DNA from: an uncultured Pseudobdellovibrionaceae bacterium
Lineage (GTDB): Bacteria; Bdellovibrionota; Bdellovibrionia; Bdellovibrionales; Bdellovibrionaceae
DNA: 61,619 nucleotides
NCBI GenBank assembly: GCA_964584655.1
Contig: CAZPBD010000002.1
Location: forward strand, 1 to 61,619
Direction of reading: 5' to 3'
In this document: positions 50,597-61,370 of the stretch, piece after piece
Layout: each line of letters opens with the position of its first letter
Position numbering within the stretch: the first letter of the stretch is position 1
Program-made: the position numbers and the translations under genes
The notes under the pieces: model-generated
The model's database searches: none
The model's input: the letters and a program-made list of their open reading frames with translations, nothing else
What the model was told of the DNA's origin: nothing

Positions 50597-51673
50597 ATGG
50601 CAACAATTGATGAACTGTTCAAATTGATGGTAGAGCAAAAGGCATCGGATCTTCACCTGACTTCGGGTGCACCGCCGTATTTGCGATTACATGGCAATAT
50701 GGTTTCACTTAATTATCGAGAATTAAGCAATCAAGATGTTCAGGGACTTATCTTTGAAATTCTGACTGAAAAACAAAAAAAACAGTTTGTGGAAAAATGG
50801 GAACTGGATTGCGCATACGCAGTTCCAGGTTTGGGTCGTTTTCGTGTGAATGTGTTCATGCAAAGAAAAGGCTTGGGCGGAGTATTTCGAGTCATCCCAG
50901 AGAAAATTTTAACTCCTCAAGAATTAAACTTACCGCAATCAATTATGGATCTGATCGATGCAGATCGTGGACTTGTACTTGTGACAGGACCCACGGGTTC
51001 TGGAAAATCGACAACTTTGGCAGCTCTTATTCATCATATCAATATGACACGTGAGGCTCATATTTTGACTGTTGAAGATCCGGTGGAATTCGTCCATCAA
51101 AATATTAAGTGTTTAGTAAATCAACGTGAGGTCGGAAGTCATACGAAGAATTTTGCGAATGCTTTAAAAGCGGCTCTTCGAGAAGATCCAGATATCATGC
51201 TTGTGGGTGAGCTTCGAGATTTAGAAACTATTTCTTTGGCTTTGACGGCTGCAGAAACTGGACATCTTGTTTTTGGAACTCTTCATACCAATGGAGCGGC
51301 CAAAACAATTGATCGTATTATCGACGTTTTTCCTTCTGGTCAGCAACAGCAAATTCGAACCATGCTTTCTGAAAGCTTGCGCGGCGTCGTTGCTCAAACT
51401 CTTTTTTCGAGAGCTGATGGTCAAGGGCGCGTGGCAGCCTACGAGATTTTGAAAAATACAAAAGCAGTTGCAAATATGATCCGTGAAAATAAGATTCATC
51501 AAGTGGCTTCGATCATGCAAACAGGTCAGAGCAGCGGTATGATGCTATTTGAAAAATGCATCGATGATCTGGTTAAAACTGGTAAGATATCTGCAAATGA
51601 TGCACGCACTTTCTTGGGTAAAGATACCGAGGTGACATCAGCTTCGAAGGGCGCTATGACTAAAGTAGGATGA
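50597..51673 (+). CDS. pilT: type IV pilus retraction ATPase PilT
   Basis: Walker A GPTGSGKST, Asp/His boxes and the PilT-type motif ANMIRENKIHQ. 358 aa. Confidence 0.93.
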   Translation: MATIDELFKLMVEQKASDLHLTSGAPPYLRLHGNMVSLNYRELSNQDVQGLIFEILTEKQKKQFVEKWELDCAYAVPGLGRFRVNVFMQRKGLGGVFRVIPEKILTPQELNLPQSIMDLIDADRGLVLVTGPTGSGKSTTLAALIHHINMTREAHILTVEDPVEFVHQNIKCLVNQREVGSHTKNFANALKAALREDPDIMLVGELRDLETISLALTAAETGHLVFGTLHTNGAAKTIDRIIDVFPSGQQQQIRTMLSESLRGVVAQTLFSRADGQGRVAAYEILKNTKAVANMIRENKIHQVASIMQTGQSSGMMLFEKCIDDLVKTGKISANDARTFLGKDTEVTSASKGAMTKVG

Positions 51674-52353
51674 AACCTACTTTTGCAACCCATGATTTAG
51701 CTAGCTATATTGATCACACCCTTTTGCGGGCAGAAGCAACAGCTTCTGATTTTCAAAAACTTTGCGCAGAAGCGATTCAAAATCATTTCTATGCTGTTTG
51801 CGTTCCGGGTCGATACGTCAAACTATCTAAAACCGCCTTGGCTAATTCTCAAGTCAAAATAGCATGTGTTGTGGGCTTTCCCCATGGTAATCAAAGTCCA
51901 AAATCAAAAGCGTTTGAAGCCTCTTTGGCCATCAGCGATGGCGCTGATGAAATTGATATGGTGATTTCACTTGGTGCCATCAAAGAAAAAAACTGGGAAT
52001 TTGTGACTGAAGATATTCAGTGTGTTGTGCAGGCCGTATCAGGCAAGCCTGTCAAAGTCATTTTAGAAACTCATCTTTTAAACCAAGAAGAAAAAACAAA
52101 GGCCATCGAGTGTTGCTTGAAAGCGAAAGCTCATTTTATTAAAACAAGCACAGGCTTTGGTGGCGGCGGTGCGACTTTAGAAGATGTAACTCTGATGAAG
52201 AAATTGGCAGGCTCTCAAGTAAAAATTAAAGCCAGCGGTGGAATTAAATCATTCGAGCAGGCCATTGCCTTTATCCAAGCGGGTGCGGATCGTCTTGGAA
52301 CAAGCTCGGGTGTCGCATTGGTGAATCATCAACCCAGCGCTGGTGGGTATTGA
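51670..52353 (+). CDS. deoC: deoxyribose-phosphate aldolase
   Basis: IDHTLL, EIDMV and the Schiff-base Lys in FIKTSTGF. Confidence 0.92.
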   Translation: MKPTFATHDLASYIDHTLLRAEATASDFQKLCAEAIQNHFYAVCVPGRYVKLSKTALANSQVKIACVVGFPHGNQSPKSKAFEASLAISDGADEIDMVISLGAIKEKNWEFVTEDIQCVVQAVSGKPVKVILETHLLNQEEKTKAIECCLKAKAHFIKTSTGFGGGGATLEDVTLMKKLAGSQVKIKASGGIKSFEQAIAFIQAGADRLGTSSGVALVNHQPSAGGY

Positions 52354-53669
52354 TGTTTTTACCTGCTGAAATAATTAAAAAGAAACGAAATGGATCTGTT
52401 CTTTCCAGTGAAGAGATCCAGCAGCTTATTCATAAGTACACTGTTGGTGAAATTCCAGACTATCAAATGTCTGCTTGGCTCATGGCTGTTTATTTTAAGG
52501 GCCTCAATAAAGAAGAAACCCATGCCCTCACTCAAGCGATGCTTCATTCTGGGCGCATCATGCAGTTTCCAAAGACTCCCGAATTTAAAGTGGATAAGCA
52601 CAGCACCGGTGGCATCGGCGATAAAACAAGTTTGATTCTTGGGCCCGTGGTCGCATCACTCGGCATACCAGTTCCAATGATATCTGGACGCGGATTGGGC
52701 CATACGGGCGGAACACTTGATAAGTTGGAAAGCATTCCCGGATTTAATACTCAATTGGATCTGATCGAATTCGAAAAAATGATTTTAGAAAATCACATCA
52801 GTTTCATTGGACAAACCTTAGACATTTGCCCCGCTGATAAGAAAATCTATGCGTTGAGGGATGTGACAGCCACCGTTGAAAGTCGTCCTTTGATTTGTGC
52901 AAGCATTATGTCAAAAAAACTAGCTGAGGGTGCTGATGGTTTAGTTTTAGATGTGAAGTGGGGCTCTGGAGCTTTTATGAAAAGCTTCGCAGACGCGGAA
53001 GCCTTGGCCTTGGATTTACAAGCGATTGCAAAAATGGCTGGCAAAAAATGCACCGCTTTAATCACTGACATGAATCAGCCCTTGGGTCGATATGCAGGGA
53101 ACTCTTTGGAAATCTTTGAGTGTGTTGAAATCATGCAGGGTAAAAAATCTTTAACCGCAGAGGGTGTTGATCTTTACCACGACACTCGTCATCTCAGCTT
53201 GGCGCTCTCTGCCCACATGGTTTTACTTGCTGGCGCTGCTGCTGATTATAAATCAGCATATCAATTGTGCGAAAATCAAATTCATAATGGGAAGGCTTTC
53301 GAAAAATTTGAAGAAATGGTGCATCGACAAGGTGGAAGACTTTCAGAGCTGCCTAAGGCTAAAAACTCGATCGTGATTCATGCTGAAAGCTCTGGATTTG
53401 TCTCCGAATATAATGCTGAGCTGATTGGACTTGCGGGCATTCAATTGCGTGCCGGGCGAATGAAAAAAGAAGATTCCATCGAGCCCACAGCTGGATTTGA
53501 ATTTCATAAAAAAATTGCGGACCCGATCCGAACTGGTGAGGCTTTGTTTACAATTTATGGTGACAATTCCTCGCTGTTTTCAGCAGCAGAAAAAATGTTA
53601 CGCTCAAGTGTTCAAATTTCCTTGCAAAAACCAAAGGCTCTGGATCTGATAGTTAAAACAATCGAGTGA
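52350..53669 (+). CDS. deoA: thymidine/pyrimidine-nucleoside phosphorylase
   Basis: DKHSTGGIGDKTS and SGRGLGHTGGTLDKLE motifs. 439 aa. Confidence 0.92.
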   Translation: MMFLPAEIIKKKRNGSVLSSEEIQQLIHKYTVGEIPDYQMSAWLMAVYFKGLNKEETHALTQAMLHSGRIMQFPKTPEFKVDKHSTGGIGDKTSLILGPVVASLGIPVPMISGRGLGHTGGTLDKLESIPGFNTQLDLIEFEKMILENHISFIGQTLDICPADKKIYALRDVTATVESRPLICASIMSKKLAEGADGLVLDVKWGSGAFMKSFADAEALALDLQAIAKMAGKKCTALITDMNQPLGRYAGNSLEIFECVEIMQGKKSLTAEGVDLYHDTRHLSLALSAHMVLLAGAAADYKSAYQLCENQIHNGKAFEKFEEMVHRQGGRLSELPKAKNSIVIHAESSGFVSEYNAELIGLAGIQLRAGRMKKEDSIEPTAGFEFHKKIADPIRTGEALFTIYGDNSSLFSAAEKMLRSSVQISLQKPKALDLIVKTIE

Positions 53670-53672
53670 TAA

Positions 53673-54491
53673 ATGCTTTTAGATAAATTAACGGAAACAG
53701 TCAGTTACATCAGATCCAGATCCCAAATAAAACCCAAAGTCGGTATTATATTAGGTTCTGGCTTGGGTGCCTTTGTTCAGCATATTAAAATTGATGCAAA
53801 GATTCCGTTTAACGAAATCCCTCATTTTGTGTCCACCTCTGTCGAGGGACATTCGGGAAATTTAATTTTAGGAACTCTTGATGATCATCCGATCGTGGCC
53901 TTGCAGGGACGCCTTCATTATTACGAGGGTCACTCCATGGATACCGTGGTGTATCCGACTCGAACCATGGCCCTTCTTGGAATCGAGAACCTCATTCTCA
54001 CAAACTCTGCTGGTGGTTTTGGCGATACCATGCAGGCCGGTGATTTTATGATCATCGAAGATCATATTAATTTGATGGGAATTAATCCTTTGATGGGACC
54101 CAATTTAAAACAATTAGGTCCTCGATTTCCAGATATGACAGAAGCCTACGATCGAAAATTTGTTGAGCTCATGGAGCAAACATTTAAAGAAATGAACAGT
54201 CGCTACCACAAAGGCATTTATTGTGGTGTCACGGGTCCCACTTACGAAACTCCTGCAGAAGTTAGGTATTTGAAATTAATTGGTGGCAAAGCCGTGGGCA
54301 TGAGTACTGTTCCAGAGGCCATTGCAGCCAATCACTTGGGACTACGAGTTGCTGCCCTTAGTTGTATCACAAATTTAGCTGCTGGAATTTCCAGAAACAA
54401 ACTGTCTCATGAGGAAGTCACTGACAATGCTAAAAAAGTGGAACAGCAGTTTGTTAATTTCTTGAAATCATTTTTGCAAAAAATTAATTAA
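53673..54491 (+). CDS. punA: purine nucleoside phosphorylase (trimeric PNP/PunA type)
   Basis: GRLHYYEGH, GPTYETPAE and GMSTVPE motifs. 272 aa. Confidence 0.9.
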   Translation: MLLDKLTETVSYIRSRSQIKPKVGIILGSGLGAFVQHIKIDAKIPFNEIPHFVSTSVEGHSGNLILGTLDDHPIVALQGRLHYYEGHSMDTVVYPTRTMALLGIENLILTNSAGGFGDTMQAGDFMIIEDHINLMGINPLMGPNLKQLGPRFPDMTEAYDRKFVELMEQTFKEMNSRYHKGIYCGVTGPTYETPAEVRYLKLIGGKAVGMSTVPEAIAANHLGLRVAALSCITNLAAGISRNKLSHEEVTDNAKKVEQQFVNFLKSFLQKIN

Positions 54492-54964
54492 GTTTGGCAC
54501 TGCCATCTTTGTTGAGGCTCTTGAGTTTCTAGATACCAAAAAAGAATCTTATTATTTTTAGACAAATAAAAAGTCATTATGTCATTTTCTTGATTCAAAC
54601 TATCGATTACAACTTTGTATCCTAGCATCTTACGAGCAGGGCTTTCCATTCTGTAAGTCGTAATCAAAAAAGGATTATCCTGACCATTTTCGATCAAAGA
54701 AATACCAGAGCGTTTGATATATCTTGAAACTAGATCCTGCTCTTTCGTCGTCAGCTGTAAAACATTATCAGTGGTCAAAGTTTGCTGGTAGCGCAAAGCG
54801 ACGGGTTTACCAGATCTGACTTTTAACAGCTGAACACGGCACTCATGGATTTCGCTATCTTGCCGCTTCGTTTGACCGACAGAGTGAAACGAAACCAAAT
54901 AGAACAGGATGGATCCTGTTGTAAGTGAAAATATGAGTCTTTTGACGAATGCCGATGTTTCCAT
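54488..54964 (-). CDS. hypothetical exported/anchored protein (158 aa)
   Basis: N-terminal hydrophobic segment LIFSLTTGSILFYLVSF. Lies 124 nt downstream of the deformylase-fusion gene on the same strand. Confidence 0.45.
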   Translation of the reverse strand: METSAFVKRLIFSLTTGSILFYLVSFHSVGQTKRQDSEIHECRVQLLKVRSGKPVALRYQQTLTTDNVLQLTTKEQDLVSRYIKRSGISLIENGQDNPFLITTYRMESPARKMLGYKVVIDSLNQENDIMTFYLSKNNKILFWYLETQEPQQRWQCQT

Positions 54965-55088: not shown

Positions 55089-57251
55089 TTAATAGTTTTG
55101 ATACATGTCAGCCACACGCGCTTTTTTAGCCCAAGTCGCAAGGCTCATTCGAATCGCAGTCCTAATTATATCGGTTTCAGTTCTTTCGCCCTGAGCTTTC
55201 AAGGTTTCTAGTTCCTTCTCGAGATCTACTAAATCCTTCTCATAATCTTTTCGAGCTTTCTCAATTCGCTGCTGCACATCTGGAGGGATCTCTTTCCAAC
55301 TTTGAGTTTGATAGTCCAAGACTTTGGAGCTTTCAAAGGGCATGAGGGCAAAGTGAGTTGTGTTTTCTATACTGGCAAAGAGCTTTGCATACTTCGGGCT
55401 GACTACTTTTGAAAGATATTGAAGGGCCTGTTTTTTGTCTGTTGTTAAGCGCAAAGTCTGCTTCTGTTGACCTTGCAAATCTACTTTTTCCCACGTTCGA
55501 TTCTCTAAACTTTGACTTATCTTATTCGTAAATTGATCCAATAGTTCTAGGTTGCGAGTTGTGTCTCGCAGCTCGATTCCGATCTTCATCGAGTCCTCTG
55601 ATGAGGCCGGGCCGTACTTGCCAGCACGCAGTCCCGCAGAGAAAAACTTTGCGTTCGTCCAGCCCAAACCAGACTGTGACATTTCAATGGTGTTCGGAGT
55701 TGTATGAAACGATCGAAGTGCACTCTTGGCTGCTTCAATAAAAGAAAAATCAGAAGGAATGTTGGCAACGCCTGTCAGATAATTTCCGTGCAGGCCCTCT
55801 TCAAGTCCTTTTAAATAAAGGTAATCATTTAAGTGTTTAAACCAGTAAATGAAACTTTCATATTTGAGATACTTTTTAGATAATTCAAAAACGACGTGAA
55901 CTTGAAACGAGTGGGTTTGTTTAAAAATTTGAGCAAGCTCTCGAATCGTGCGCATTAGACGCTGTCGATTGATCTCATACTTTTTATGCGAAATTTCCCA
56001 GCCATAGCCCTTGCGATGTGCATCACTTAATTCGACAGAGTAACCACCCACGGCCGCAGGCTTTAAATCTGTTGGCATAACCGTTTGGGCTTTTAGAAAA
56101 GTTTTTTTAACAACATGAAGTTTTTGGATGAGCTTTATTCGCTCGTTCTCAGGTTTTTGTAGCCACTCCGCCTCTGAAAACTGCGGAGGTCGATAGAGAA
56201 GTGTGATATCGGAAGTGGAACCTTCCTTTTCAAAAGCATACGTCACAATGGAATTTCCAGATTTACGACTTTCGATGAAATTAACATTATTGGCGTGAAG
56301 ATAGTTAAGTTCTTCTTTGAAGTTATTTAATCCTGAACGGCTTAATAAATCATAAAGCCAAAGCGCGTGCTCTTCTGTTCTAGCCCATTCATTGAGCGCG
56401 CGTGAGCGATCTTCTCTTGAAGGCAGATCAATAAAAATCTGGAGCAAAGTTTCAACTTCCTTTTTGAAACCCAGAGGGTCGGGATGTAGTTTTAGAACGT
56501 CATGGCTTAAAGAATACGGATCGTGGGCCTCTTGGACTGAGTTATCAATCAGCTGAGTGATTTTCTGAATGGGCTTATCAAGAAGTTTACGACTGCGCTC
56601 AATCGACTTCTTAGATTTTAACTCTTTGAGAAGAGTTTTATCCGTGTAAAGGATTCCATCCAAGTGATCGACTTCGTGCTGAAGAACCCGGGCCAAAAAA
56701 CCCTTCACTTCGCGCACTTGGTGCTGTCCTTGTTCGTCGAGATACTCGACCTTAACGGACGTGTAACGTTTTACATAACCGCAAACTCCTGGAATCGAAA
56801 GACAGCCCTCAGTCCCCCATTCAGTTTGATCTGTTAAAAAACGAAGACGTGGATTTATAAGTACGACATCTTTTTCGCTACCGAAAACATTTCGATCTTG
56901 AACAACGATTAATCTTAAGGATGAACCCACTTGAGGAGCTGCGATTGCCACTCCACCTGCACGCTTCATTTCAGATCGCAAACTGCGGATTAGATTTTTG
57001 ATGTCATGGGAATCAATCTCTTGCTTCGAAACTTCAACTGCTCTATCGCGAAGTACAGGATCATTTTTAGAGACCAGCGTGAGTTTTTCTGAGCTTGTGT
57101 TTGCATTCGCACCGCTAACTGCTTGAGCGCAGCTAAGACCTTTTGAAACATTCGCGGCAAAAACTTGAAATGGCGCAACAGCCGACAAAAGAATCGACAA
57201 TTTGAGAAGTGAAATGGCGCCTAGAAGGCTTATGGATCGCAGCTGAGACAT
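55089..57251 (-). CDS. exported peptide-deformylase-domain protein fused to large unknown C-terminal module (720 aa)
   Basis: Leader MSQLRSISLLGAISLLKLSILLSAVAPFQVFA. PDF motifs GVAIAAPQVG (motif 1), EGCLSIPG (motif 2) and QHEVDHLDG (motif 3) are all intact. About 500 further residues have no family recognised. Confidence 0.8.
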   Translation of the reverse strand: MSQLRSISLLGAISLLKLSILLSAVAPFQVFAANVSKGLSCAQAVSGANANTSSEKLTLVSKNDPVLRDRAVEVSKQEIDSHDIKNLIRSLRSEMKRAGGVAIAAPQVGSSLRLIVVQDRNVFGSEKDVVLINPRLRFLTDQTEWGTEGCLSIPGVCGYVKRYTSVKVEYLDEQGQHQVREVKGFLARVLQHEVDHLDGILYTDKTLLKELKSKKSIERSRKLLDKPIQKITQLIDNSVQEAHDPYSLSHDVLKLHPDPLGFKKEVETLLQIFIDLPSREDRSRALNEWARTEEHALWLYDLLSRSGLNNFKEELNYLHANNVNFIESRKSGNSIVTYAFEKEGSTSDITLLYRPPQFSEAEWLQKPENERIKLIQKLHVVKKTFLKAQTVMPTDLKPAAVGGYSVELSDAHRKGYGWEISHKKYEINRQRLMRTIRELAQIFKQTHSFQVHVVFELSKKYLKYESFIYWFKHLNDYLYLKGLEEGLHGNYLTGVANIPSDFSFIEAAKSALRSFHTTPNTIEMSQSGLGWTNAKFFSAGLRAGKYGPASSEDSMKIGIELRDTTRNLELLDQFTNKISQSLENRTWEKVDLQGQQKQTLRLTTDKKQALQYLSKVVSPKYAKLFASIENTTHFALMPFESSKVLDYQTQSWKEIPPDVQQRIEKARKDYEKDLVDLEKELETLKAQGERTETDIIRTAIRMSLATWAKKARVADMYQNY

Positions 57252-57336: not shown

Positions 57337-58659
57337 TTATTCATTACTTAAGTTAGCCGCCACAGTCGCGGAAACCGTAGATTTCACAGCAAAGTGGCTG
57401 GTTAAAACAGCCAACACTGACAACAAGACCGTCGTAAATAAGTACGACGAAAAGTCATAGGCAATTCTAAATACCACAGGCTCTGAAAGTAATCCTGCTC
57501 GGTAAAGAAGTGTGGATTGGTTCACGAAAAAAGTGATCCCGAGTGCCAGTACAAATCCAATCCCTACACCCATCAGACTTAAATACAGAGCTTCCAAAGT
57601 AAATAAAGCCCCCACCTGCTGAGAGCTAAAACCTAAACTTCTTAAGGCTCCGATTTCACGGGTTCGTTCTTTGATACTTTTCACGACAGTATTCAAAACA
57701 GAGAGTCCTGAAATCGTGAGTGTCACTGTTACGATGAAAATTTGAAAGATGCCCAATAAATCTTGGGTCTTATTAAATAAGTCCGCAACAGGATGCTTGA
57801 GCCAATGTGTGGCCGTTGTTGTCAGCCCGTTTTTTTCAGCGAATTGATTGAAGTCATGAATGAATCCATCGGCCTGTTTAGATTTTTTCATCAGCACAGA
57901 AATAAATTTAACATCTTCGGTGTTCAGTAAAGTTTGTGCATTTTCGACGGACATCTTCATCCATTTTTCGTCGATATCTTTGTAGCCACCATCAATAATG
58001 CCTACCACTTTGAAATCCATGGCATTGAGCTGGCCTGACAAAGTCGCAGCCGAAGCTTGAATGGTTTCTTTCTGACATTGAAAGGGGCGAATTTCTGGTT
58101 TGTAGCCATCGTTTTGCACCATACCCTCGATTTTAGGTGTGGGCTCGCATCCAAGTAAAAACCCTAAAGCTTGGCCGACGACGACAACATCAGAATCTTG
58201 AGCGACTTGCAGAGGCTGACCGTACAAAACTTCCCATTCCCATTTAGGAGCTCTCATCATAGCTCCTTCTTTTAGGTCGTACCCCATAGCAACAAAAAGG
58301 AACGAGTTCTTTCCATTGGTCACAGTTCCCGTCACTGGCAAAAATCGAACTCTGGAAATAATTTTGTCTTTATGTTGAGAAATAAACTGATCGATTTTTT
58401 CTTGCTCAGCTTTGCTAATCAGATTTTTTTCGGGCTGAGATTTTCCTTCGGGCGTATTAACATTCGGATTTTCAATGAGCAGATGACCATACATCGCCCG
58501 GTTGTTGAAACCCACTTCATATAAGTGATTGACGTCCGAAATATAGCCTTGAAATAAAACTAAAGACAAAAAGCCTGCAGAAATAGAGGCAATCGCAGCT
58601 AAGCTGTGCCGCCAGTTTTTCAAAGTATTTCTGTAGGCGATTCTTGCAAGTGGCATCAT
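57337..58659 (-). CDS. FtsX/LolC/LolE/MacB-type ABC permease (copy 2)
   Basis: N-terminus AYRNTLKNWRHS plus TM1, a large periplasmic loop and a C-terminal 3-TM FtsX module (REIGALRSLGFS). Confidence 0.85.
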   Translation of the reverse strand: MMPLARIAYRNTLKNWRHSLAAIASISAGFLSLVLFQGYISDVNHLYEVGFNNRAMYGHLLIENPNVNTPEGKSQPEKNLISKAEQEKIDQFISQHKDKIISRVRFLPVTGTVTNGKNSFLFVAMGYDLKEGAMMRAPKWEWEVLYGQPLQVAQDSDVVVVGQALGFLLGCEPTPKIEGMVQNDGYKPEIRPFQCQKETIQASAATLSGQLNAMDFKVVGIIDGGYKDIDEKWMKMSVENAQTLLNTEDVKFISVLMKKSKQADGFIHDFNQFAEKNGLTTTATHWLKHPVADLFNKTQDLLGIFQIFIVTVTLTISGLSVLNTVVKSIKERTREIGALRSLGFSSQQVGALFTLEALYLSLMGVGIGFVLALGITFFVNQSTLLYRAGLLSEPVVFRIAYDFSSYLFTTVLLSVLAVLTSHFAVKSTVSATVAANLSNE

Positions 58660-59408
58660 CGTTTTAAATTATTCACATTGAAAAGGGTTTCACGGTGAGT
58701 ATCAAGTTTTGGCTCTATGTAACGAATCACTGATTTATTATTTTCCAATTTTGCATCCACGATTTCAATTTGGCTGATAAACGCGGTCGAGCTTTCATTC
58801 AAACCTTGAACTTTATTATCATACTTCATTTTGGCTCGCTTAAAGGCTTTACCTTGCAAAGTCAGAAATTCAGCTTGAATCGCAAGTCCGTCACTTTCAC
58901 GAATCCAATACCTAATTTGATCATAGGTTAAATTGTTGGCCTTTGCTTTCAGTAGCAGAACAAAAGACTTGGCGCCGTCAACGACCTCAGTTTTTTCAAG
59001 TGTCGGCGTGTAATCCCGAGCATAATGAGTTGAGGCGATATCACCGTTGGCTGCTTGTCCTGTGAGTTTTTGTCTTGCAGAAATTGTGACAGGCTTTCTA
59101 AGTGACGGTTTGAAAAACCACATCGCCCGGTCGTTGAAAAGATAGACTTCCCCCTTGTTGCGAGAGGGCTCGAGGGCTTCGACGTAAGCATTTACGTACT
59201 GAGCACGAACCTTAAATTTTTTCTTCGTGGTTTGGCCCTCTTCAGTTGTTTCCACTTCACTAATCCAACTCAGTCCCTTTTCTACACTTCCACGGGCGCG
59301 ATCTGATTGTTTTAAAAGTTTTTCTGCATCTTGAGCTTGAGCTAGATTTGAAAGAGCGATGCAAATTAAAAAAAGAACTTGAGGTAAAAACATTTTAGGC
59401 TCCTGCAT
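58656..59408 (-). CDS. LolA-like 'outer membrane lipoprotein-sorting' family periplasmic protein
   Basis: Leader ...VLFLICIALSNLAQA. The segment AMWFFKPSLRKPVTISARQKLTGQAANGDIAS matches my memory of the LolA_like family core. The start could be Met1 (59408) or Met6 (59393). Confidence 0.75.
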   Translation of the reverse strand: MQEPKMFLPQVLFLICIALSNLAQAQDAEKLLKQSDRARGSVEKGLSWISEVETTEEGQTTKKKFKVRAQYVNAYVEALEPSRNKGEVYLFNDRAMWFFKPSLRKPVTISARQKLTGQAANGDIASTHYARDYTPTLEKTEVVDGAKSFVLLLKAKANNLTYDQIRYWIRESDGLAIQAEFLTLQGKAFKRAKMKYDNKVQGLNESSTAFISQIEIVDAKLENNKSVIRYIEPKLDTHRETLFNVNNLKR

Positions 59409-60693
59409 CTGTCAGTAAATTAATAATTTTTGTCTTCAACTTAAACGTCGTCACTAAATAAGCTGTTAGCCCAACCACTAAGAGAAAAATGAGAAGAACG
59501 ATAAAGACCAAATATAAATTTGGCGAAAGAATAAATTGAATACTGTTGGTCACACCGGGTGGAGTGAATCGAATGTTGGCTGCATTTACGACAAATGAAA
59601 TGATGAACGATAGAAATGTGCCAAGTGCTGCACTGATTAGGCAAAGGCATAGGGCTTCTTGAGTCATCATGATTGCAATTTGTTGATTGGTGAAACCGAT
59701 GGCCCTGAATGTTCCGATTTCACGGGTGCGTTCGATAATTCCCATGGTCAGCGAATTCATGATCGAAAGCGCAACTGCCCCGCATATAAGAAAAACAAAA
59801 AAACCGCTCATGACATATAAAAATCCCATAGAACCAGCATAGTTCGGAGAGATCGCTGGTAAATCAAATCGGTAGGCTTCAAGCGGCAGATTATTTTTTG
59901 CGAAGCTTTGGTTGAGATCCGATAAAATTGGATCTAGATCTCGGATGTCTTTGAGGTAAACCATGATGTAGTGAAAACCTTCTAAAGAGTAAAGTTCTTG
60001 CAGAGTTTCCACTGAAGCAAGCAATCCAGAGTCCTCTAGCATTTCAGAACCTGTTGTGTGATTCACTGCTAGCTTCACGTCCACTGCATTCAGATCCCCA
60101 TATTGGGTCATTCCAGCTAACTGAACGTAAGTTTCGTCTTCAGATAATCCAACGTAAGGCCGCTTTTTGCGAAGCAAATCAGAAAGTCGCTCGGTGATTG
60201 AAATTGATTGAGGCGTGTCTTCCAGGGCTTGAACAAAACCCGTCGTCCCAGGGAGCAGAAAATCAATGGCCCAAGTCAGTACGTCTTGGTTTACAAAACT
60301 ATTCTTCAAGGTTTGAAGATCAACTCCTGTTGCAAAAAACGGAACAGACCGATCCCCGTCACTGACAAGTCCAGCACCAGTCAGAGTTTTACCAATCCAA
60401 TCTACTTTATCCTTTTTGCTTTCCAATAAAGTTTCAATTTGTGTCAGCATTTCCGGGGTGACTTGATATCTTGATGGCTGAGTTCCAAATCTTTCAAGTC
60501 CGCCTTTTTTAAATATCGTAATGTGACCTTTATTGAAAAGATAAATGGAATTTGTGCGAAGACTGATTTCAACACGATGGATGTATCCACCCAGTAACAA
60601 AAGACCAATGAATCCTGCAATCACAGCCGCAGCTGTCGCCACAGTCCTTCGATGATTTCTAAAAAGATTGCGAAAGGCAAAAGTCCAGGTCAC
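59395..60693 (-). CDS. FtsX/LolC/LolE/MacB-type ABC permease (copy 1)
   Basis: AFRNLFRNHRRT plus TM1, a periplasmic loop and a C-terminal FtsX module (REIGTFRAIGFT). Confidence 0.85.
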   Translation of the reverse strand: MTWTFAFRNLFRNHRRTVATAAAVIAGFIGLLLLGGYIHRVEISLRTNSIYLFNKGHITIFKKGGLERFGTQPSRYQVTPEMLTQIETLLESKKDKVDWIGKTLTGAGLVSDGDRSVPFFATGVDLQTLKNSFVNQDVLTWAIDFLLPGTTGFVQALEDTPQSISITERLSDLLRKKRPYVGLSEDETYVQLAGMTQYGDLNAVDVKLAVNHTTGSEMLEDSGLLASVETLQELYSLEGFHYIMVYLKDIRDLDPILSDLNQSFAKNNLPLEAYRFDLPAISPNYAGSMGFLYVMSGFFVFLICGAVALSIMNSLTMGIIERTREIGTFRAIGFTNQQIAIMMTQEALCLCLISAALGTFLSFIISFVVNAANIRFTPPGVTNSIQFILSPNLYLVFIVLLIFLLVVGLTAYLVTTFKLKTKIINLLTDAGA

Positions 60694-61370
60694 GAGTGAA
60701 TAACCCCGTCTTGAATTCTGACAACACGAGAAGTTTGTCTAATGAGTTTTTCATCATGGGAACAAAACAGAAACGTGACTTTGCGCTCTTGATTTAACTT
60801 CAACATCAAATCCAAAATAATTTGAGATGTTTTAGAATCTAAATTTGCTGTTGGTTCGTCGGCCAGTACTAACGCTGGTTGAGTCACAAGTGCTCTTGCG
60901 ATTGCAACTCTTTGCCTTTGTCCGCCAGAAAGTTGATCAGGACGATGTTTCACAAAGTCTTCAAGACCAACGGATTTCACAACTTCGTTCACTCTTTGAA
61001 GTCTTTCAGAATCCGACAGTCTGTTTTTAACTAATAATGGAAGTTCAATATTTTCGATCACATTTAAAACTGGCACCAAGTTAAAGGATTGAAAAATGAA
61101 TCCTATCTTTTGATTTCTGAGGTCACAAAGATCTGTTTCGGACATTTTAGTGACTTCTTTATTTTCAAATTGAATGGATCCAAGAGTTGGTAAGTCCAAA
61201 CAGCCGATGAGATTCAGAAGGGTGCTTTTCCCTGAACCCGACGCACCGATCACACTTGTGAATTCACCTGCAAGAATTTCTAGATCGATTCCACGAAGGG
61301 CCGGAACCTCTGTTTCACCAAGTTTATAGGATTTTTTAACTCCGTTGAGTTTGACAAGTACCACTGGCAC
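60690..61370 (-). CDS. LolD/MacB-type ABC ATPase
   Basis: Walker A GASGSGKST, signature LSGGQRQR, Walker B LVLADEPT and H-loop CSHD. GTG start. Confidence 0.92.
   Translation of the reverse strand: MPVVLVKLNGVKKSYKLGETEVPALRGIDLEILAGEFTSVIGASGSGKSTLLNLIGCLDLPTLGSIQFENKEVTKMSETDLCDLRNQKIGFIFQSFNLVPVLNVIENIELPLLVKNRLSDSERLQRVNEVVKSVGLEDFVKHRPDQLSGGQRQRVAIARALVTQPALVLADEPTANLDSKTSQIILDLMLKLNQERKVTFLFCSHDEKLIRQTSRVVRIQDGVIHS

Follow-up and report, generated by a model that had tools for sequence, protein, structure and literature searches.

The window analysed here is a stretch of 61,619 nucleotides from an uncultured Pseudobdellovibrionaceae bacterium (contig CAZPBD010000002.1 of assembly GCA_964584655.1). 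Its minus strand carries an open reading frame (ORF) whose product places a peptide deformylase (PDF) domain between a leader-like N-terminus and some 500 C-terminal residues. This ORF exists as the original prediction, made from the letters of the DNA, had described it, and its parts are arranged as follows.

55089 to 57251, minus strand: whole ORF, 720 residues plus stop codon, with an ATG start (ORF listing)
57156 to 57251, minus strand: Sec-type signal-peptide-like leader, residues 1-32, called from hydropathy and a start-codon scan; also present in family members
57087 to 57155, minus strand: linker, residues 33-55, carrying Cys41 (57129-57131), a position that is Cys in nearly every sequence of alignments A1 and A3
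56634 to 57077, minus strand: PDF domain, residues 59-206 (Pfam PF01327, NCBIfam NF001159 and TIGR00079), aligned with the other PDF domains of the family
56925 to 56954, minus strand: PDF motif 1, GVAIAAPQVG, residues 100-109
56787 to 56810, minus strand: PDF motif 2, EGCLSIPG, residues 148-155
56655 to 56681, minus strand: PDF motif 3, QHEVDHLDG, residues 191-199
56274 to 56609, minus strand: all-helical adaptor, residues 215-326 (DPYSL..., W..SE.HAL.LYD), AlphaFold2 (AF2) helices 2-112 with a predicted local distance difference test score (pLDDT) above 90; conserved in A1
55275 to 56273, minus strand: putative catalytic core, residues 327-659, with a predicted glutamine synthetase (GS)/amidoligase-like fold (AF2 pLDDT 95.1, Foldseek, invariant columns and motif order)
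55092 to 55274, minus strand: long C-terminal helices, residues 660-720, ending AIRMSL..WAK.ARV, AF2 helices 443-503 in C-terminal numbering; conserved in A1 and A3

The gene is real, and the order of its parts is leader, Cys, PDF, helical adaptor and catalytic core. The same 720-residue product, identical throughout, was called on an independent Logan assembly, and PDF-bearing relatives of similar length from other samples share 90, 84, 77 and 60 % identity with it over the C-terminal module. Gene order around the locus is retained in the 90 % relative (L029), and the fusion is also present in more distant members of the family described below. The original prediction had itself named an assembly chimera or a frameshift, joining two genes, as something that could undo it. 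The unusual architecture is the sole point in favour of such an artefact, here a def gene joined to an unrelated one; against it stand the recurrence of the ORF in independent assemblies, the fused relatives, both close and distant, the retained synteny and the occurrence of the leader and Cys in family members that have no PDF. We therefore rejected a chimera, and an artefact of either kind is vanishingly improbable, being already effectively refuted.

The start-codon scan found only TTG18, TTG22, TTG91 and ATG95 as alternative in-frame starts ahead of PDF motif 1. The claim that no other Met lies between residue 1 and this motif was thus not quite accurate, as M95 sits five residues upstream of it, but the conclusion drawn from that claim holds: none of these codons can yield a complete PDF domain without the leader, so an internal start that removes the leader was rejected and the leader is part of the protein.

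The original prediction could not place the C-terminal residues, and our searches agree with it. Residues 215-720 gave no match in Pfam at E-values up to 10, whether the query was the window protein, 34 family members or distant members; none was returned by NCBIfam, PHROGs or PADLOC, and there was no sequence match in the PDB with phmmer and two profiles. A first search for relatives of this module returned 37 close homologues, about 20 of them without PDF, and an exhaustive profile search through 1.84 billion proteins gave no more than 163 representatives; when a profile of the most distant members (A4) was used in a word-indexed search, no further relatives came to light. Nine of the ten loci in species-representative genomes lie in Bdellovibrio, Bdellovibrionales or Bacteriovoracales metagenome-assembled genomes (MAGs), the tenth being in a Paceibacterota MAG. 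The module is therefore a small family almost restricted to Bdellovibrionota. Its commonest form is a PDF-less protein of about 560 residues, made up of a leader, a Cys that is near-invariant and lies just past the predicted cleavage site, the helical domain and the core, and the helical adaptor always precedes the core. We found no earlier description of the family in the literature searched, nor any of a leader, PDF and this core combined; public records label the proteins merely 'peptide deformylase' or 'hypothetical protein'.

To the original prediction the protein was a deformylase fused to an odd module. The fusion is real, but the emphasis is better reversed: as judged by the distribution of domains, the constant element is an amidoligase-like family of predicted secreted proteins, in which PDF appears as an optional insert, lost or decayed repeatedly. 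A family-trained search into the spread of the fusion, which the original prediction had proposed to establish, located PDF in about 22 family members, in each case with the helical adaptor after it and either the leader or an extra N-terminal domain before it. All three PDF motifs are kept in about a dozen of them and the domain is degenerate in about nine; it is fully degenerate in P0007, P0009, P0012, P0041 and P0050, while a single His of the HExxH motif is gone in P0116 and in P0150, and the sole departure in P0006 and P0165 is at the Gly of EGC. In a neighbour-joining tree built from the core, the members with PDF are mixed among those without it (P0022 lies by P0023, and P0039 by P0034), which implies repeated loss, gain or recombination of the domain.

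The N-terminal parts vary in other ways. An extra Cys-rich domain of roughly 250 residues, with an internal hydrophobic stretch (IIGDVIMPPAAAIGLIFKG) and no Pfam match, stands between the leader and the PDF or core in P0034, P0036, P0039, P0041, P0050 and P0155. In P0165 (1096 residues) a far more divergent GS-like core (GLESEM ... GHVVFP ... GFELRQFH) comes after the leader, Cys, PDF and helical adaptor, with about 300 extra residues beyond it, so that the PDF-plus-adaptor unit seems to move as a cassette. A few distant members have no leader. Among these is P0157, a high-GC homologue of 616 residues on a 1.9-kb Logan contig, which has no PDF and carries instead an N-terminal eCIS_core/DUF4157 domain (E 4e-31), including an HExxH motif (GHELAHV) upstream of a core that retains its catalytic residues. 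The eCIS_core/DUF4157 domain marks cargo of contractile injection systems, and P0157 is the sole link seen between the core and known toxin-delivery systems.

In order to place the core, we turned to structure prediction and structural comparison, as the original prediction had proposed. AF2 with the family alignment gave confident models both for residues 215-720 (pLDDT 91.9, predicted template-modelling score (pTM) 0.91) and for the cropped core (residues 327-659, 89 sequences; pLDDT 95.1, pTM 0.92), and Foldseek returned weak but coherent GS-fold neighbours. In BFVD, a library of predicted viral structures, the top match is annotated as an amidoligase (E 9.3e-4, probability 1.00), as are eight of the best 17 matches. 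No match in the PDB is significant by E-value; the highest probabilities there belong to Dop (0.63 and 0.72; 9cku_G), PafA (0.38-0.54; 4bjr) and several glutamine synthetases. Amidoligases, Dop, PafA and the glutamine synthetases are members of the GS-fold carboxylate-amine ligase superfamily.

The conserved residues point in the same direction. E343, E419, K535, R542, E560 and R562 are invariant in the 89 aligned members, and E341, H452, E484, Y546, D563 and R566 are near-invariant; the residues that we list as key to the core are E341, E343, E419, E426, Q450, H452, E484, K535, R542, E560, R562 and R566. In the AF2 core model E341/E343, E419, Q450/H452, R542 and E560/R562 occupy alternating positions on predicted β-strands, E484 is likewise on a strand, and K535 lies four residues before the strand numbered 213-217 in that model. 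The series picked out by eye in the original prediction was located in full (GWEISHKKYEI at 417-427, FQVHVVFEL at 449-457 and KIGIELRD at 556-563), but the true first E-x-E strand, FEKEG at 340-344, had been missed. With it, the ordered ligand set E-x-E, E, H-x-H, R and E-x-R is present, the window protein having Gln at the first His, a position that is His in 81 of the 89 sequences. Direct comparison of the sequences gave the same order of motifs in Escherichia coli GlnA, YbdK and the phage amidoligases:

E-x-E: FEKE in this protein, GPEPEF in GlnA, GIELEM in YbdK, GvEvEvE in the phage amidoligases
Glu strand: WEISHKKYE in this protein, HEVATAGQNEV in GlnA, GaEYV in the phage amidoligases; not identified in YbdK
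H-x-H: (H/Q)VH in this protein, GMHCHM in GlnA, QHVHVG in YbdK, HVH in the phage amidoligases
Arg strand: KFFSAGLR in this protein, NRSASIRIP in GlnA, KYxSxNL..YGS in the phage amidoligases; not identified in YbdK
E-x-R: IELR in this protein, RIEVRF in GlnA, VEVRV in YbdK, IEFR in the phage amidoligases

Profile-profile comparison with an Amidoligase_2 alignment built from 13 phage genes was not significant: hhalign in its standard local mode aligned only the H-x-H motif over ten columns (P 0.04, not significant), its greedy local mode gave P 0.006 over 164 co-linear columns with the 89-sequence core (not significant), and the probability stayed below 7 %. Profile comparison of the core with the single sequences of E. 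coli GlnA and YbdK gave no match. The assignment is accordingly made at the level of fold only and, as profile membership failed for every described family, the core is best called a new family within the GS-fold superfamily. What the original prediction had guessed by eye, a GS-fold carboxylate-amine ligase, is backed by the Foldseek searches and by the ordered invariant residues; the core probably folds like the GS-fold amide ligases and would work like them.

The deformylase part is readily recognised, and the motifs on which the original prediction relied were all located. Residues 59-206 match PF01327 with an E-value of 6e-45 (153 bits against a cut-off of 22.8), and the curated NCBIfam models NF001159 (156 bits against 125) and TIGR00079 (119 bits against 104) are also exceeded. 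The metal ligands C150, H192 and H196 and the catalytic E193 are all present, and the single deviation in motif 1 is an Ala that replaces the second Gly of G-x-G-x (G-V-A-I); the domain therefore looks catalytically intact. By profile and motifs, though by neither size nor predicted location (720 residues, leader-like N-terminus), the domain is a PDF-family member. Its closest stand-alone relatives are ordinary enzymes of 150-170 residues with 40-49 % identity to the PDF domain. The best 120 of these stand-alone PDFs align to the PDF part of the query only, none covering the leader, and eight that were inspected, including the six longest listed, are all leaderless. No second def gene lies within the window. 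One Bdellovibrionales MAG carries a stand-alone PDF-like ORF of 202 residues (L011, 6307-6915, minus strand) about 1.7 kb away from its family member; this ORF is 31 % identical to the window protein (E 1e-17) and might be either the housekeeping def or the origin of the domain in the fusions.

The N-terminus of the window protein (MSQLRSISLLGAISLLKLSILLSAVAPFQVFA) has a single positive charge at R5, a hydrophobic core with a Kyte-Doolittle maximum of 2.2-2.4 and V-F-A before the likely cleavage site, A33 being the next residue. As judged by heuristics, the features of Sec export (n-, h- and c-regions and small residues at -3/-1) are all there. The hydrophobic leader of the original prediction has its equivalent in 83 of the 108 full-length family members by a simple rule of hydropathy and charge, and 79 of these 83 have a Cys shortly after it. 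This single Cys, 3-12 residues past the predicted cleavage site, is near-invariant family-wide, including in PDF-less members with no other conserved Cys. It forms no lipobox in most members, P0043 having a classical LLSC lipobox, and possible roles for it are an intermolecular disulfide, covalent attachment or a sorting signal. The PDF domain holds an extra Cys that E. coli Def does not have, Cys157 (56781-56783, PGVCGY), which is kept in most fused PDFs, even in P0007, P0009 and P0012 with their catalytically dead motifs; the clade without Cys157 (P0059, P0061 and P0101) has a different Cys in the first PDF strand. This pattern of conservation suggests that Cys157 may be disulfide-bonded to the post-leader Cys, an arrangement that would suit an oxidising, extracytoplasmic location.

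The genes on either side of the locus are the following.

57337 to 61370, minus strand: ATP-binding cassette (ABC) ATPase, FtsX permease, LolA-like protein and second FtsX permease, ending 85 bp upstream of the gene
54488 to 54964, minus strand: ORF of 158 residues with a hydrophobic N-terminus and no Pfam match, 124 bp downstream

The arrangement of the ABC/FtsX/LolA-like cluster is kept in the 90 % relative, as is the 158-residue ORF, there with an extra gene of 350 residues in between; no equivalent of this ORF lies next to more distant family members. On the plus strand, and converging on the locus, lies a nucleoside-salvage cluster (51670-54491; DeoC aldolase, pyrimidine-nucleoside phosphorylase and purine-nucleoside phosphorylase), which is consistent with a scavenging, predatory lifestyle.

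The two halves of the protein both resemble well-studied enzymes and depart from them in several respects. An ordinary PDF is a cytoplasmic protein of about 170 residues. The window protein is like Def (PF01327, TIGR00079) in its 40-49 % identity, its scores above curated cut-offs and its intact EGCLS and HEVDH, and unlike it in its leader-like N-terminus, conserved Cys, about 500 extra residues and the Ala in motif 1; within the module family, moreover, PDF is dispensable and often degenerate. Amidoligase_2 (PF12224), GCS2 and YbdK share with the core the strand-borne order E-x-E, E, H-x-H, K/R-[YF]-x-S...YG and E-[FL]-R, and provide its best structural neighbours in the viral library. They differ in that the core finds no Pfam match at E-values up to 10 and no significant hhalign match, that the module adds large helical parts (about 110 residues N-terminal and about 130 residues C-terminal), and that it is predicted to be secreted, whereas amidoligases are, to our knowledge, cytoplasmic or phage-encoded. 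PafA and Dop, the Pup ligase and depupylase, are protein-modifying enzymes with a C-terminal helical domain, a feature shared with the module, and are its highest-probability PDB neighbours (0.72 for Dop 9cku_G, 0.54 for PafA 4bjr); the unlike features are a TM-score of about 0.3, no sequence similarity, no Pup or proteasome context, an origin in Actinobacteria as opposed to Bdellovibrionota, and the predicted export of the window protein. Cargo of eCIS and polymorphic-toxin systems is represented by P0157, in which eCIS_core precedes the same core with its catalytic residues kept. Unlike this protein, the window protein has a Sec-type leader and PDF and no eCIS_core; Pfam found no delivery domain in it, and there are no immunity or injection-system genes nearby.

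We favour, at about even confidence, the reading that the protein is an exported, prey-directed amide-bond enzyme in which PDF supplies or recognises N-terminal amines. The leader, together with an acidic/His site and a Lys/Arg site on a β-sheet, fits an exported enzyme that activates carboxylates and couples them to amines. Sec export from a Bdellovibrio-like predator is predicted, so that the protein would act outside the predator cytoplasm, in the prey periplasm or in a prey cytoplasm that has become permeable. A divalent metal would be bound through E341, E343, E419, H452 and E560, and a phosphoryl group or ATP through K535, R542, R562 and R566; the core might then activate a carboxylate as an acyl-phosphate and couple it to an amine, or else break an amide, as Dop does. 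An intact PDF, such as that of the window protein, would strip the formyl group from N-formylmethionine (fMet) N-termini. As its sole product is a free N-terminal alpha-amine, the simplest link between the two domains is an amine substrate that PDF provides or recognises, and the pair would process or modify the N-termini of prey peptides and proteins.

A number of observations weigh against this reading, the main difficulty being the supply of nucleotide. An exported ATP-dependent ligase is hard to reconcile with a periplasm that has no ATP; a permeabilised prey cell or the prey cytoplasm would be the only places to provide nucleotide. The signal peptide was called from simple hydropathy and charge heuristics only. 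The structural matches have low TM-scores (0.24-0.40 overall, about 0.24-0.33 in the PDB) and PDB E-values all above 0.007, and no sequence or profile method ties the core to any known family. The ligand set itself is imperfect, as the window protein has Gln450 (55902-55904) in place of the first His. P0002-P0006 share this Gln and form with the window protein a clade with intact or near-intact PDF; in P0115 and P0167 the Gln occurs independently. Given the non-significant profile comparisons and Gln450, a GS-like fold is taken as likely, not proven. The decay of PDF in several lineages shows that core function is independent of deformylation, which is not essential to the family. Finally, there are no shared neighbours across the ten family loci, with neither a conserved partner nor an immunity gene, and hence no partner or immunity gene can be proposed.

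The lack of periplasmic ATP is sidestepped if the core is an amidase of the Dop type, which would take off an acyl or gamma-glutamyl-type group with nucleotide as a cofactor or unused. Together with PDF, itself a deblocking amidase, it would then form a two-headed N-terminal deblocker that opens blocked prey peptides to digestion in the bdelloplast. In its favour, no PDB neighbour has a higher probability than Dop, and nucleoside-salvage genes such as those of the window typify a scavenging lifestyle. Against it, the core resembles Dop only weakly (TM 0.33), Dop too requires a bound nucleotide, and the invariant set K535, R542, R562 and R566 is what phosphate-binding ligases keep; we hold hydrolysis to be unlikely. 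Similarly doubtful is the proposal that PDF is not used as a deformylase at all. The decay of its motifs in about nine of 22 fused members, with the domain retained, would allow it a role in binding, in targeting or as a pre-toxin: PDF could bind Met N-termini or the ribosomal exit, or target the protein there, or it could be a self-processing, metallopeptidase-like pre-toxin domain like the eCIS_core of P0157, with the core as a toxin delivered into prey. PDF and eCIS_core are both HExxH metalloenzyme folds, and the motif of P0157 stands upstream of the same core. Against this, the metal ligands and catalytic Glu of the window protein are intact and its domain scores above the equivalog cut-off, the family members have no conserved adjacent immunity gene, and the eCIS_core fusion is a single case on a 1.9-kb contig without context.

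A more specific form of the exported-ligase reading, and a long shot, is that of a predator effector. Housekeeping PDF acts on nascent chains at the ribosomal exit site, and the fused PDF might dock on fMet N-termini of the prey, possibly at that site, and deformylate them, whereupon the core would ligate a carboxylate group to the exposed alpha-amine. If true, this would be an unknown N-terminal protein modification serving killing or digestion, with related cores used in other bacteria as injected toxins fused to eCIS_core. The location may also be questioned: the hydrophobic N-terminus could be an uncleaved anchor that holds the protein on the predator inner membrane, facing the periplasm, where its targets would be the envelope or the exported proteins of the predator itself and not prey. 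The long h-region (about 22-25 residues with one Lys) would suit an anchor, and the gene lies directly downstream of the same-strand ABC/FtsX/LolA-like envelope transporter cluster, an arrangement kept in the 90 % relative. Other members have shorter, classical leaders with A-x-A sites, and the more distant ones have no conserved neighbourhood, which makes membrane anchoring very unlikely.

Taken together, the architecture and the family are solid, and the interpretation offered by the original prediction is partly supported. Most secreted proteins of Bdellovibrio-like predators are uncharacterised, and the module defines among them a compact, predator-restricted family of predicted secreted enzymes with a clear putative active site; present public annotation hides this real conserved unit. 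Wider use of the core, possibly as a toxin domain, is hinted at by the single eCIS_core fusion. Deformylases and GS-fold ligase-like enzymes are both normally cytoplasmic and here both are predicted to be exported; if both domains are active, they would point to undescribed chemistry on the N-termini or amines of prey.

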